Origin: Candidatus Woesearchaeota archaeon
GTDB taxonomy: Archaea > Nanobdellota > Nanobdellia > Woesearchaeales > UBA583
Length of the DNA stretch: 64,000 nt
Direction of reading: 5' to 3'
Assembly (NCBI GenBank): GCA_965205335.1
Contig: OZ242164.1
Coordinates: 640,001 to 704,000, forward strand
Position 1 is the stretch's first letter. Each line of letters begins with the position of its first letter. Below are positions 18,796 to 24,490 of this stretch, piece after piece. A model generated the notes under the pieces. The model did no database searches, had not been told where the DNA came from, and saw only the letters and a list, made by a program, of their open reading frames with translations. Both the position numbers and the translations under genes were made by a program.

Positions 18796-19083
18796 ATGAA
18801 AAGAGTTGGGGGATTTAGAAGAAAATCCAGACATAAGATGAGAAAATCTATCTCAGAGAAAGGAAAACTGCACATTAGCAGATTCCTTGGGACATTTGAA
18901 CTAGAAGATAGAGTACTTTTAAAAGCATACTCAAGTTATCAGAAAGGATTATTCTGCCTAAGATTTCACGGGAAAATCGGTGAAATAGTAGGAAAAATAG
19001 GCAAATGCTACAAAGTCCAAATAAAAGATGGAAACCAAAAAAAAGAATGCATTGTTCATCCCGTCCATCTAATTAAAGTTTAG
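18796..19083 (+). CDS. rpl21e: 50S ribosomal protein L21e
   Basis: RFHGKIG, IKDGNQKK, VHPVHL; conserved L21e-Rpo4-DUF655 gene order. Confidence 0.95.
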   Translation: MKRVGGFRRKSRHKMRKSISEKGKLHISRFLGTFELEDRVLLKAYSSYQKGLFCLRFHGKIGEIVGKIGKCYKVQIKDGNQKKECIVHPVHLIKV

Positions 19084-19102
19084 AATCTTAAAAAAATCAA
19101 AA

Positions 19103-19447
19103 ATGAGCAATTACGAAATACTTTCAAAAGAACCAATATCAAACACGCAAGTTAAGAGCATAATCTCTAAAAAAGCAAAAGAAACAGAAGAATTAACATA
19201 TAGAGAAAAGAAAACAAAAGATTACCTAAAAACCTATACTAAATTAAAACTATCAGACTTTAAAAAAGCAAGAGAAGAATTATTAACATTAGAAATCCGA
19301 AGAATTGAAGAAAAACACATAATAAAAATATTAGACATAATGCCTAAAAACGGAACAGAACTTCGTGCTATTGTCTCACACTCAGGCATGGTCTTTGTCG
19401 ATGAAAGTGTTGAAAAAATATTAGAAGTTCTCAAAAAATACAGATAG
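19103..19447 (+). CDS. rpo4: RNA polymerase subunit Rpo4 (RpoF)
   Basis: ELTYREK..DYL, KILDIMPKN..ELRAI; gene context. Confidence 0.88.
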   Translation: MSNYEILSKEPISNTQVKSIISKKAKETEELTYREKKTKDYLKTYTKLKLSDFKKAREELLTLEIRRIEEKHIIKILDIMPKNGTELRAIVSHSGMVFVDESVEKILEVLKKYR

Positions 19448-19507
19448 AACTCCCAATTTTAACAAATATTTATAAATTTCTAAGTCCAAGAATTATAATA
19501 ATAAAAA

Positions 19508-20068
19508 ATGAATGAAGAAGAATCTAAAGAAAAAGGGAAAGAAGAATACGCCATAATATTAGATATTGTTACAGATTCCCCTAACTCATTCAAAAACCAA
19601 GAAATAGCTCAGGCAGTCGGTACTAACTCATACACACTCTTAGAACTCGTTCCAAAACAAGGGGTTATCCTAAAATCAGGACAGAAAGTGTATATAGGAG
19701 ATGGAAAAAGAGATGAAATACAATACATTAAAAGGGCACTCTTTCCAAGCAAACTATCCCCAAGTTCAAAATCAGAATTAATATTTGCAATAACTGATAT
19801 TATATGTGAAAAAGAAAAGGAATTTATAAATTTCTTCAATTCAGCAGGTCCAATCACAATAAGAAAGCACTCTCTTGAACTAATATCAGGAATTGGTAAA
19901 AAACACTTACATGACTTAATATGTGAAAGAGACTCAAAACCATTCTCATCATTTGAAGATATTAAAAAAAGATGTCAATTCATCCCAGACCCTGCCAAAT
20001 CAATTGCCCAAAGAATAGTTGATGAAATTGAAGGAAAAGATGATTTCAAATTCTTTACAAGAAAATAA
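19508..20068 (+). CDS. DUF655 putative RNA-binding protein
   Basis: TLLEL, YIGDGKRD, FFNSAGPITIRKHSLELISGIGKK. Confidence 0.92.
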   Translation: MNEEESKEKGKEEYAIILDIVTDSPNSFKNQEIAQAVGTNSYTLLELVPKQGVILKSGQKVYIGDGKRDEIQYIKRALFPSKLSPSSKSELIFAITDIICEKEKEFINFFNSAGPITIRKHSLELISGIGKKHLHDLICERDSKPFSSFEDIKKRCQFIPDPAKSIAQRIVDEIEGKDDFKFFTRK

Positions 20069-20074
20069 ATCCAA

Positions 20075-21457
20075 CTAACTCTTCCTTCTCTTAGACTTTA
20101 ATCTCAAATACACATAATGCAAAGGATTTTTTGATTTCCTATTTCTAAACTTATTTATATCCTCATCTACTATCTCCTGAGGAACTCCTATCCCGAAATA
20201 ATAATTAGCATTACTAAAATTAGGAGGAGATAAAACCTTGCTTTGAGCCTTAAACCACAACATCTGAGCCATTAGATAATTAGACTTTAAAGGATTGCTC
20301 TGCTTATCATTCCACTCCTTAACAACCTTTTCAACTGTTTCAATATCCCATTTAACTGATGTTAAAAAAGTCATAAGCAAAAACAAAGCTCTCTTTCTCC
20401 CATCCTCAAACTTATTACTTAAAACATACTGAATTGTTCTTGGAAAATCAGAAACTTTAACATCCTCTGTTATCTCAAATGCAAAACCCTCTCCCCTTCC
20501 TTTCAGACTATTCTCATATTCCAAATTCATCTTATCATACATATAATCCTCATCAGAATAAACCCTCTCAAGCAAAACCCTTCCATCCTGCCCATACCCA
20601 GAATCATATCTCAGAAACTCAAATTCCTTATTAGATGAAGGATTTACTATTTGGGGCTTTGCCATATCCTTATCAAACTCCATTACCTTATCCTTATCTA
20701 CTGGAACACTAACAAGCCCTGACTTCTCATTTAAAGAATATGGCATCCTAAACAGATGTCTTGAAGTAATCAAAATAGTATCAATATCTATTACCTTCAT
20801 AAAATTAAACTCATTCCTTTTTTCATTGTGCTCTAAACTCCCTTGAGGAATTGAATACCTCTCACAAATTTGCTTGATTGCCCTAATCCCTCCTCCCTCA
20901 TAATCCAAAATAGCTTTCGAAATCCTTGATTTAAGTTCATGTATTAAAAACAAAACTGTCTTCTTTGCCATATCCGGAAAGAGTAAACGAGTTTGGGAAA
21001 TTCCTGAAACCAAGCCAGGTGCTTCTGGTGGAAAAGCCTCAAAAGGAATTCCAATATGAAAACCTTTATTTCCTGAGAACTTAACTGTAACATTTTTAAT
21101 GCCAATTCCTTCAAAATAATCAAGAATAACTCTTGCAAAAAGTTTTGAATAAATAAAATCCACCCCATCCAAATCAAGAATTAAATCCCAGCCAGTTCTA
21201 TTCTTATTCTTTTCATCTTGGGGTAATCTATCATTTCCCAAAAGAAGAGGATTTGCCCATCTCTCCTCACTGCAATGAAAAGAAAAAACTCCCTTCCTGA
21301 CAAGACTTCTAACATCAGAAACATATTCTATAACATCAGGTCTTTTCCCAAAAAAACCATCAAACATAACACCAATCTCACGATCTTTTGCAAAACTTAA
21401 AATAGCCTTCTCAATTTCAGGTCTGCTATAATAATTCCTTGCAAGGATTTTGTCCAT
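20075..21457 (-). CDS. priS: Single-chain DNA primase (PriS catalytic domain fused to a PriL/PriX-like C-terminal domain)
   Basis: WDLILDLD, FSGNKGFH, RHLFRMPYSLNEKSG; C-terminal DGRKRALF...WN...PL domain. Confidence 0.85.
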   Translation of the reverse strand: MDKILARNYYSRPEIEKAILSFAKDREIGVMFDGFFGKRPDVIEYVSDVRSLVRKGVFSFHCSEERWANPLLLGNDRLPQDEKNKNRTGWDLILDLDGVDFIYSKLFARVILDYFEGIGIKNVTVKFSGNKGFHIGIPFEAFPPEAPGLVSGISQTRLLFPDMAKKTVLFLIHELKSRISKAILDYEGGGIRAIKQICERYSIPQGSLEHNEKRNEFNFMKVIDIDTILITSRHLFRMPYSLNEKSGLVSVPVDKDKVMEFDKDMAKPQIVNPSSNKEFEFLRYDSGYGQDGRVLLERVYSDEDYMYDKMNLEYENSLKGRGEGFAFEITEDVKVSDFPRTIQYVLSNKFEDGRKRALFLLMTFLTSVKWDIETVEKVVKEWNDKQSNPLKSNYLMAQMLWFKAQSKVLSPPNFSNANYYFGIGVPQEIVDEDINKFRNRKSKNPLHYVYLRLKSKRRKS

Positions 21458-22319: not shown

Positions 22320-23282
22320 TCACTCAACCTTGAAAATCTCCAATGCATCAATTCTCTTATCCAAACCCTCAATCTCTTTTCTCAAATCCTCCAACTCATC
22401 AGAATCACTTGTTACAATATTTAAAAAAAACTCCTCAGAACTAAGACTCTTAATCGCCCTAACTATCCTCTCATTTGAACGCAAAAAAGATGTAATTTTC
22501 AACTCAGTCTCCTTATCCAAAAACTGAAACCTTAATATTGCCGCATACTGATTTAAACCCAACTTATTAAAATTAATAACTGGAATTATCTCTCCTAAAA
22601 TTCCCTGCTCACGCATCCTATCAATCCTGTACTTTACAGTATCCGAACTAATATTTAACCTCTTTGCAATTCCTTTGTACTGAGTTCTTGCATCCGACTC
22701 TAACTGATTAATAATCTCTCTGTCCTTCTCATCCATCTGTACAATATCCCCTGTCTTAATAACCTTAAAATCATTATCTCTCGTATACTCCTCATCAAAC
22801 ACCTCTCTTGCAAGAGTTTCCCTCTGCGACTCCTTTACCTCCTCAGAACTGATAATAGTATAATAATTTGCCAAAACATCTGAAAACTTCTCAAGAATCT
22901 CTGAAAGCTTCAACTTAAACTCATCAACAGACTCCGCATACAACCTTACAATCAAATCCCATCCCTTTTGAGACTTAACAATCCATATAAGATACTTATT
23001 CCCAATATTTTCCCTGATAAACTTCTCCTTAGAAACCTCATCATCCAAATTCAACTTAAGAAAAATAATATACTCCTGATAATGAAGTGCCTTCTCATTA
23101 AGCTTTGGCACAAACTTAACAATCAAATTCTCCTTAATCAATCTCTTTATTCTATAATTAACAATCTCCCTACCCAAATCAATTTCCTTAGAAATACTTG
23201 AAGAACTTGCCCTGCCATCCTCAAGCAATCTCTTTAAAATAAGCACATCTTTCTCTGTAATAATAGAATTCTTCCTGTCCAT
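22320..23282 (-). CDS. Tandem Lrp/AsnC family transcriptional regulator
   Basis: Two HTH-RAM units (ILKRLLEDGR..VNYRIKRL; IINQLESDAR..VKYRIDRM). Confidence 0.92.
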   Translation of the reverse strand: MDRKNSIITEKDVLILKRLLEDGRASSSSISKEIDLGREIVNYRIKRLIKENLIVKFVPKLNEKALHYQEYIIFLKLNLDDEVSKEKFIRENIGNKYLIWIVKSQKGWDLIVRLYAESVDEFKLKLSEILEKFSDVLANYYTIISSEEVKESQRETLAREVFDEEYTRDNDFKVIKTGDIVQMDEKDREIINQLESDARTQYKGIAKRLNISSDTVKYRIDRMREQGILGEIIPVINFNKLGLNQYAAILRFQFLDKETELKITSFLRSNERIVRAIKSLSSEEFFLNIVTSDSDELEDLRKEIEGLDKRIDALEIFKVE

Positions 23283-23472
23283 CCTATCAAATATTTAGAG
23301 AATTTTATTTATAAACCCTTCTATATACCACCAAATAAACAATTCAACTTCAAAACAAAAGAACAATAAAAAACTACTCACAATAAACCAACTCACATTA
23401 CATCTTTGCCACAAAACCTCTGCCCTACCCTCCCATTCACTTTTTTACCTTCTTAACTAACCCTTCAAAACT

Positions 23473-23480
23473 TTTATAAA
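23473..23480 (+). promoter_or_regulatory. TATA box of the SRP RNA gene
   Basis: TTTATAAA about 23-30 nt upstream of the predicted RNA 5' end. Confidence 0.7.
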
Positions 23481-23502
23481 AACAAAAATCTTAACTTCTA
23501 CA

Positions 23503-23651
23503 AGGCCAGTCCTGACAGATAAGGTAGAAGCTCTGCCTCCTATGGCTTATTTTTAAGTGAACTGTGTCAGATGGGGAACCAAGCATCACTAAACTTATCT
23601 CTGAGTGCTTAGGAATCGTGGGGTGGACGATGCTGACAGGGTAGCTGGCCT
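23503..23651 (+). ncRNA. ffs: Signal recognition particle RNA, minimal (~149 nt)
   Basis: GC-enriched island; termini AGGCCAG/CTGGCCT pair; helix-8 signature GUGAAC-UGUGUCAGA-UGG-GGAA-CCA-AGCA. Confidence 0.88.
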
Positions 23652-23749
23652 AACTTAAAAATTCTAAACTCACACATCACAGACCTTAAACAAATTTATC
23701 TCTACTAAAATAACAAAACAATTACACAAAAAATTACAAAAAGAAAAAA

Positions 23750-24490
23750 TTATCTCTTAAACAAACCACCTAAATCACTTGGCAAAAATATAAATTTCTG
23801 AGAAGCATCCGATGAAATATCATTAATTGTCTGAAGAGTTCTCAACTGCATTGCTCCTGGATACTTACTTAACATTGAAGCCGCCTTTGCTAAATTCTGT
23901 GAAGCCTGAACTTCTCCTTCTGACTTGATAATAATTCCTCTTCTCTCTCTTTCAGCTTCTGCTTCTCTTGCCATAACCCTCTTCATATCCTCTGGCAGTT
24001 CAATATGCTTTAACTCTACTCTATCAACCCGCAATCCCCAACTATCAGAAGCCTTATCAATTATAGTCCTGATTTTATCAGAAATTGAATCTCTGTTTGC
24101 AAGCAACTGATCCAAAGTTACCTCACCAACCACATCTCTCATTGTTGTCTGAGACAACTGAGAAATAGCATAATAAAAATCCTCCACATCAAGAATTGAC
24201 TTCTTCACATCAAACACATAATAATACGTTACAGCATCAACATTCATAGACACATTATCCTTTGTAATACAATCCTGTTTTGGAACATCAACTGTCTTAA
24301 CACGAATATCCACTCTCTCATACGACTGAAAAATCGGAATTACAACATTTAATCCCGGACTCATAATTGATGAGAACCTCCCTAAAGTAAACTTAATCCC
24401 TCTCTCATACTCAAGTATAATCTTAATACCAGATAAAATGAAAAGGACAATTACTACAATAATAAATATAATTATACCATCCATAGCCAT
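23750..24490 (-). CDS. SPFH/stomatin-like (slipin) membrane protein
   Basis: VPKQDCITKDNV, QTTMRDVVG, AEAERERR, AMQLRTLQT. Confidence 0.95.
   Translation of the reverse strand: MAMDGIIIFIIVVIVLFILSGIKIILEYERGIKFTLGRFSSIMSPGLNVVIPIFQSYERVDIRVKTVDVPKQDCITKDNVSMNVDAVTYYYVFDVKKSILDVEDFYYAISQLSQTTMRDVVGEVTLDQLLANRDSISDKIRTIIDKASDSWGLRVDRVELKHIELPEDMKRVMAREAEAERERRGIIIKSEGEVQASQNLAKAASMLSKYPGAMQLRTLQTINDISSDASQKFIFLPSDLGGLFKR

Follow-up and report, generated by a model that had tools for sequence, protein, structure and literature searches.

A 149-nt single hairpin, very probably truncated from archaeal 7S RNA, as the predicted SRP RNA of a woesearchaeal genus

The question raised by this locus is whether an archaeon can carry, as its only SRP RNA, a single hairpin of 149 nt. 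According to two reviews (2010 and 2018), archaeal SRP RNA is uniform, namely a 7S RNA of ~300 nt that possesses both an Alu domain and a helix 6 and is accompanied by a conserved SRP19 (PMC2905702, PMC6098224). An earlier note on the window (the whole 64-kb stretch of DNA that was analysed) had proposed a minimal, bacterial-style SRP RNA at this place; the sequence elements that it quoted were re-read in the window and all of them lie where it had put them. The locus is a non-coding stretch flanked by two minus-strand genes, one for an AsnC/MarR-type regulator (22320-23282) and the other of the SPFH/Band-7 type (23750-24490). The genome is a single contig of 1,199,749 bp with 31% G+C and is 95% complete by marker genes. 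The host is archaeal, since the window encodes L21e, Rpb4/RpoF, DUF655 and a primase small subunit. L21e, Rpb4/RpoF and DUF655 are three adjacent same-strand genes at 18796-20068, and the primase small-subunit-like gene, which is divergent and codes for 460 aa, is located on the strand opposite to this trio at 20075-21457. Elsewhere, outside the window, a 17-nt motif occurs 11 times on the minus strand of G000:C1:18469-19549, mostly at a spacing of 96-102 nt and with one gap of 204 nt; this motif, a chance find of the helix-8 scan described below, looks like a tandem repeat, probably inside a repeat-protein gene. For the hairpin locus our reading is that 23503-23651 is very probably the only SRP RNA of the cell, one hairpin of 149 nt with a TATA promoter of its own, truncated from a 7S RNA of ~272 nt. 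The features on which this reading draws are collected in Table 1.

Table 1. Features of the hairpin locus, with positions in the window and strand.
Feature	Position	Strand	Remark
Predicted SRP RNA gene	23503-23651	+	149 nt, one unbranched hairpin made up of distal helix 5 and helix 8
Archaeal TATA box TTTATAAA	23473-23480	+	ends 22 nt before the first RNA base
Terminal stem	23503-23510 (AGGCCAGU) with 23644-23651 (GCUGGCCU)	+	8 pairs, 5 changed on both sides, 95.8% of cells paired
Second stem	23511-23518 (CCUGACAG) with 23633-23640 (CUGACAGG)	+	one A-A mismatch in the window species
5e-like motif, 5′ half GUCC	23509-23512	+	G7, U8 and C9 invariant, C10 nearly so
5e-like motif, 3′ half GGGUAGC, GUA bulged	23639-23645	+	G137-C143 invariant in 15/15 aligned species
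Conserved internal-loop strand AUAAGGUAGAA of helix 5 (5f-type region)	23519-23529	+	columns 17-27 invariant or nearly so
Conserved internal-loop strand GGACGAUG	23625-23632	+	faces 23519-23529; G123, G124, A125, G127, A128 and G130 invariant
Four more covarying stems	between internal loop and asymmetric loop		
Helix-8 asymmetric loop UGAACU / UAAA	23558-23563 / 23590-23593	+	A58 and A59 invariant
Flanks of the apex, GUGAAC and CUAA	23557-23562 and 23589-23592	+	
Apex UCAGA-UGG-GGAA-CCA-AGCA	23567-23585	+	
Helix-8 core	23564-23589	+	predicted SRP54 M-domain binding site
Helix-8 stem GUGU / UCAC	23564-23567 / 23586-23589		
Helix-8 symmetric loop CAGA / AGCA	23568-23571 / 23582-23585		
Helix-8 stem UGG / CCA	23572-23574 / 23579-23581		
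GGAA tetraloop	23575-23578		

At the gathering score Rfam gives no RNA-family match in the whole 64-kb window, and ARAGORN gives no tRNA or tmRNA. The best Rfam match is to Bacteria_small_SRP (RF00169) at 23530-23627, with 36.2 bits against a cut-off of 40 and an E value of 4e-6; in the cmscan alignment the helix-8 core fits perfectly and many outer pairs are mismatched. When RF00169 was searched over the whole genome, the same locus was the only match. The covariance search that had been suggested as a check thus does return an SRP family, but it does so below the gathering cut-off, and the archaeal and large-bacterial models return nothing. Folding of the single sequence gave a minimum free energy of -50.6 kcal/mol (z = -1.82; 10 of 200 shuffles fold equally well), and this structure also draws two small side hairpins. 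Taken alone, the fold of the single sequence is no better than chance. The comparative evidence is of another kind and settles the matter. For 15 aligned congener sequences RNAalifold returned one unbranched hairpin of 47 pairs, in which 96.0% of the cells of the MAFFT alignment are paired as against 83.3% in shuffles. Compensatory changes on both sides were found in 27 of the 47 pairs, and none of 500 shuffles reached any of the five measures used; controls in which the 3′ partner was slid gave 35-53% paired cells. The single long hairpin is therefore strongly supported by the covariation seen in this alignment, and the fold of about 149 nt originally drawn from one sequence is borne out by the consensus across congeners. 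A scan of the genome with a regular expression for helix 8, which is a weaker method than the covariance-model searches, gave many chance matches, and a paired stem was seen at the 23503-23651 locus only.

The apex of the hairpin carries all the helix-8 features of the SRP RNA superfamily (Rfam clan CL00003), i.e. a GNRA tetraloop, a symmetric loop with CAG-purine on the 5′ side and AGCA on the 3′ side, and an asymmetric A-rich loop. In all 15 aligned sequences C66, A67, G68, the GGGAAC run, A80, G81, C82 and A83 are invariant, while pairs 70-79 and 71-78 covary. The cmscan alignment together with these signature nucleotides upholds the assignment of the apex as a helix 8 of the SRP54-binding type. 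One pair departs from the pattern in the window species: pair 65-84 (23567-23586), beside the AGCA loop, is U-U there as against U-G in 14 of the 15, and the Rfam score below the cut-off is in part due to this U-U. Further down the hairpin, GUCC and GG[GUA]GC form the pairs 7-144, 8-143, 9-139 and 10-138, and we assigned them by inspection as a putative 5e motif, the layout of which fits the description in PMC2905702. The 3′ half of this motif in a congener aligns onto 'gggguaAccc' of the Rfam Archaea_SRP model, and the AUAAGGUAGAA strand falls on the 'uGA' loop of this model.

The distribution of the RNA was followed with R1, a covariance model built from the congener alignment. The genus makes up the whole family in the genome collection. 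BLAST found homologues with 75-81% identity over essentially all 149 nt in 14 of the 19 other genus genomes, and with R1 a single full-length match was obtained in each of 18 among the 20 genus genomes, including 12 of 12 high-quality ones; the two negative genomes are both 85% complete and lie in 160-200 contigs. The window gene itself (23503-23651) is matched by R1 over positions 1-150 with 152.1 bits. A motif scan of metagenome contigs added six stretches, each of them with a full-length R1 match of 149-151 nt (147-163 bits). A looser pattern scan returned 120 stretches, nearly all of them chance bacterial ones, and among the 80 loci listed R1 matched one, on a contig already known. On searching five flanking proteins by tblastn, no match was found at 17 genus loci, and at 43 sister loci there were two weak matches of the HTH regulator only, both at one locus. 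As there is no conserved synteny, it is the RNA itself that identifies these loci as orthologous.

In the alignment that includes the flanks, conservation is bounded exactly by the terminal stem, from its first base to its last, and across the genus loci the TATA box TTTATAAA is the sole conserved flanking element. In each of the 18 species a TATA-like box precedes the first paired base. By pattern search its end is 21-25 nt upstream in 17 of the 18; in the remaining species (G013) the pattern caught another A/T run at 34 nt, and by eye TTTTATAAA ends ~22 nt upstream. Most congeners also have a short T run within a few nt 3′ of the terminal stem. From the promoter position, the limits of conservation and these downstream T runs we infer that the transcript would begin and end with the hairpin. 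A look-up of public sequencing runs gave no RNA run for 23350-23800. With an unbranched fold and a promoter that abuts the stem, there is indeed, as had been argued from the one sequence, no space for an Alu domain or helix 6 between the TATA box and the closing stem.

These limits bear on the alternative that the Alu part is encoded elsewhere, in a split or permuted gene and acting in trans as in Thermoproteus, or that the transcript runs past the hairpin. Such arrangements have precedent, as split and permuted RNA genes occur in archaea and the Thermoproteus SRP RNA is described as permuted and circularised (PMC4731332). A longer transcript is opposed by the unconserved flanks and by the TATA box found immediately 5′ of the stem in every species. 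For the Alu domain we built a covariance model, R2, from 40 sister RNAs, taking the first 70 nt of each. No credible Alu match was obtained with it in the 20 genus genomes (the two best E values are 0.08 and 0.97), nor, at E up to 1, any match in the window or in the six metagenome contigs, yet R2 recovered the 7S 5′ end in 5 of 5 sister genomes on which it had not been trained (54-82 bits). The 1.2-Mb single-contig genome also has no match to RF01857 at E up to 10 and none to RF01854 (Bacteria_large_SRP, cut-off 60 bits) at E up to 1. The earlier note had named a full 7S RNA elsewhere in the genome as the finding that would speak against its proposal; none was found by RF01857, RF01854, RF00169 or R2. 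We regard a hidden Alu part or a longer transcript as very improbable and keep to the reading of a self-contained hairpin.

Where such a hairpin came from can be judged from the 7S RNAs of related families. Archaea_SRP (RF01857) has a full-length match of ~270 nt in 20 of the 21 other families of the order, with 18 of these over the cut-off. In the genus no full-length RF01857 match was found, and there are three sub-threshold hits in congeners, at 50-58 bits (cut-off 96.5), all on the short locus. The alignment of one congener to the model spans positions 90-285, and the hits overall lie within 81-293. In the other direction, R1 positions 1-150 align without a break to 147-150 nt within the ~272-nt 7S RNAs at 22 of 22 sister loci (67-98 bits); these include two loci from other orders, and the sister RNAs pass or approach the RF01857 cut-off. 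At L019, for example, where the RNA is 272 nt long, R1 covers nt 91-238. Relative to the sister RNA, the short RNA is thus missing ~90 nt at the 5′ side and ~34 nt at the 3′ side, which comprise the Alu domain (with helices 2-4 and the end-pairing helix) and the proximal helix 5. Judged by these alignments, the short RNA is a descendant of the archaeal 7S RNA in which distal helix 5 and helix 8 are kept.

The descent also decides on the possibility that a bacterial 4.5S RNA gene was gained by horizontal transfer and replaced the archaeal 7S RNA. The best Rfam match of the window species is the bacterial small SRP RNA and the architecture is that of 4.5S RNA, both of which would fit a transfer, but the score stays below the RF00169 cut-off (36.2 as against 40 bits) and the promoter is archaeal. 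The congeners score 50-58 bits on Archaea_SRP within model positions 81-293, and the whole 150-position model, including helix-5 loops that lie outside the universal helix-8 core, fits all 22 sister 7S RNAs. Because of this unbroken fit a bacterial origin is ruled out in our analysis, i.e. we hold transfer to be extremely improbable, and the likeness to 4.5S RNA is one of convergent architecture. The description 'bacterial-style' therefore holds for the architecture of the RNA but not for its origin, since the RNA is a truncated archaeal 7S derivative that falls short of the RF00169 cut-off.

The absence of helix 6 has a different history from that of the Alu domain. In cmscan the 40-position helix-6 segment of the RF01857 model is empty both in the short RNA and in a 272-nt relative. 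In the phylum sample, whose genomes of 0.5-2.1 Mb fit the DPANN type, 140 of 150 genomes have an Archaea_SRP match (131 over the cut-off), and by reading of the table ~135 of these matches are 263-278 nt long on a model of 317 positions. Such lengths fit the missing helix 6 that is seen directly in the aligned RNAs. With Pfam PF01922, SRP19 was found neither in the genome of the window species (E up to 1) nor in any of the 41 genomes of the order sample, and among 301 high-quality phylum genomes none has a match over the cut-off, two weak matches containing stop codons. A local hmmsearch (--max) with a three-protein SRP19 profile against all 8724 six-frame ORFs with a minimum length of 40 aa gave a best E value of 1.8. 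In controls, PF01922 recovered SRP19 at 75-84 bits in three of four unrelated archaeal MAGs, the fourth being a 0.8-Mb partial genome. In named archaeal controls it found SRP19 in three of four and missed that of Sulfolobus acidocaldarius, and so the search is not fully sensitive. The absence of SRP19 from the genome, which had been set as a check on the proposal and is now obtained by both the Pfam and the local profile search, is well supported by these sequence searches, short of proof, as an SRP19 of strongly divergent sequence may exist, or another protein in its place.

By the same comparisons, helix 6 and a detectable SRP19 were lost before the genus arose, a loss shared by much of the phylum, most of whose 7S RNAs are already without helix 6. 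Loss of the Alu domain is seen in the studied genus alone among the genomes searched. The expectation that helix 6, Alu domain and SRP19 dependence would be lost together is thus right insofar as none of the three elements is detected, but the loss of helix 6 and of a detectable SRP19 is not tied to the truncation and is common to most of the phylum.

The protein side of the particle was also inspected. SRP54 in the genome (L018:538-1947, on G000:C1) is 469 aa long and has an N, a GTPase and an M domain, the last (SRP_SPB, 111.8 bits) carrying the stretch SRIKRIAKGSG, which we take to be its RNA-binding motif. A second SRP-type GTPase, FtsY-like, is encoded in an open frame of 418 aa. These proteins matter for the alternative in which the hairpin has lost its part in protein targeting, either as a conserved relic or as a small RNA put to another use, and in which SRP54 would act on its own or together with some RNA that escaped recognition. 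The U-U mismatch beside the SRP54-binding loop in the window species agrees with such a relic, as do seven phylum-sample genomes (G040, G103, G106, G170, G151, G095 and G139) that have no R1 or RF00169 match, although one of them, G151, has an Archaea_SRP match. Against it, the stems covary whereas none of the nucleotides known to contact the M domain varies among 15 species, and this combination points to selection on an RNA in use; moreover, the SRP54 M domain is complete and the RNA is single-copy per genome. A relic or re-purposed RNA is thus very unlikely to be the explanation, and we continue with the hairpin as a probable SRP RNA.

When set beside known SRP RNAs, the short RNA shares with bacterial 4.5S RNA (RF00169) the unbranched hairpin, the GGAA tetraloop, the symmetric loop ending in AGCA and the asymmetric loop; both RNAs are free of an Alu domain and of helix 6 and have a lone SRP54/Ffh protein as partner. 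The short RNA differs in being longer (149 nt), in its TATA promoter, in its archaeal 5e- and 5f-type loops and in its 7S descent. The 4.5S RNA of E. coli is ~114 nt. The homology between the short RNA and archaeal 7S RNA (RF01857) extends over distal helix 5 and helix 8, with the 5e-like GUCC/GGGUAGC kept, but the short RNA has half the length and is without helices 1-4 (the Alu domain with its UGUNR turn), proximal helix 5 and helix 6. The closest comparison is with the helix-6-less 7S RNA of the sister families, which is the direct ancestor type: sequence and pairing are the same over 148-150 nt and SRP19 is not detectable in either, whereas the sister RNA keeps its Alu domain (R2, 54-82 bits) and the genus has none. 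The layout of this sister-family RNA, with Alu domain, helix 5 and helix 8, equals that of the bacterial large SRP RNA (RF01854). In microsporidian and other reduced eukaryotic SRP RNAs the small domain is reduced or lost. Erosion of the small domain in some Desulfurococcales and in Nitrosopumilus is described in PMC2905702; there helix 6 and SRP19 remain, as opposed to the genus, where both the Alu domain and helix 6 are gone.

Three other candidates for a reduced form were set aside. The RNAs of genus g178 are full-length and are assigned by Rfam to the bacterial large family, the RNA of G055 is cut by contig ends, and L213 (G151:C19:693-1032) has an Alu domain. In L213 an insertion of ~190 nt, perhaps an intron, a mobile insertion or an assembly error, separates the Alu domain and the helix-5 5′ strand from helix 8; the stretch covered stops short of the 3′ part. 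Some further variants were seen in passing. In another order of the class, two RNAs of 260 nt (L201 on G131:C10 and L202 on G175:C13) match Bacteria_large_SRP best, at 74 bits with a cut-off of 60, and they exceed this cut-off because the Alu domain is present and helix 6 absent. An RNA of 282 nt (L203 on G082:C1) is best on Archaea_SRP, with 80.7 bits as against the cut-off of 96.5. An apparent exception to the loss of helix 6 is genus g35, of the order to which the studied genus belongs, with RNAs of 309-320 nt at L210 (G054:C97:6229-6548), L211 (G120:C4:17056-17369) and L212 (G080:C4:27822-28130). Aligned to the Rfam model, those of G054 and G120 have an unusual helix-8 apex and are longer by ~45 nt where the model has helix 6, and SRP19 was not detected in 12 genomes of this family. 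Six genomes that are 95-100% complete (G095, a 0.5-Mb single contig of the same class, and G139, G040, G103, G106 and G170) gave no Archaea_SRP, R1 or RF00169 match; they may hold further divergent or reduced SRP RNAs, or they may be misses of the search filter.

How a particle with this RNA would work can be proposed by analogy with bacterial 4.5S RNA, in whose action binding of the M domain, the tetraloop and distal docking all take part. The SRP54 M domain would bind the helix-8 loops directly, in the absence of SRP19, and the GGAA tetraloop would speed assembly with FtsY. The conserved loops of helix 5 may then offer the distal site at which the SRP54-FtsY GTPase pair docks before hydrolysis. 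A particle without an Alu domain would not be able to reach the factor-binding site of the ribosome, and pausing by that route would be gone, though we know of no established arrest function of the archaeal Alu domain. Archaeal SRP54 is reported to bind 7S RNA without SRP19, and SRP19 is reported to be dispensable in Haloferax volcanii (PMC2905702, PMC6098224); binding of this kind makes an SRP19-free particle plausible. The 5e motif was proposed in 2010 to be a hinge between small and large domain and was noted to degrade where the small domain erodes (PMC2905702). Here the 5e-like motif is invariant though the small domain is gone, suggesting that it does not serve as a hinge but in some other way, of which docking of the GTPase pair is the most plausible. 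Taken together, we consider it likely that the genus has a two-component archaeal SRP, made of SRP54 and the 149-nt hairpin, as a counterpart of the 4.5S particle that was reached independently, with helix 6 and SRP19 lost first and the Alu domain afterwards, and with a non-hinge role for 5e.

In the open full-text literature we found no description of an archaeal SRP RNA that is without helix 6 or the Alu domain, where subscription papers, supplements and the rest of PMC7203096 (which mentions SRP19 and helix 6) may differ; SRP is not mentioned in PMC3491384. For annotation the case has a practical side, as Rfam at the gathering score finds no SRP RNA here and archaeal RNA of a sister order would be labelled 'bacterial large SRP'. 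As a consequence of such misses and mislabels, genome surveys may wrongly call the SRP RNA missing or transferred. The lineage departs from the uniform archaeal picture in all three respects, i.e. Alu domain, helix 6 and SRP19. If the two-component SRP is true, archaeal co-translational targeting would need neither the Alu domain nor the pair of SRP19 and helix 6, and bacteria and one archaeal genus would have converged on the same minimal targeting RNA. The genus would thereby offer a natural experiment on the purpose of the archaeal Alu domain and of the 5e motif.
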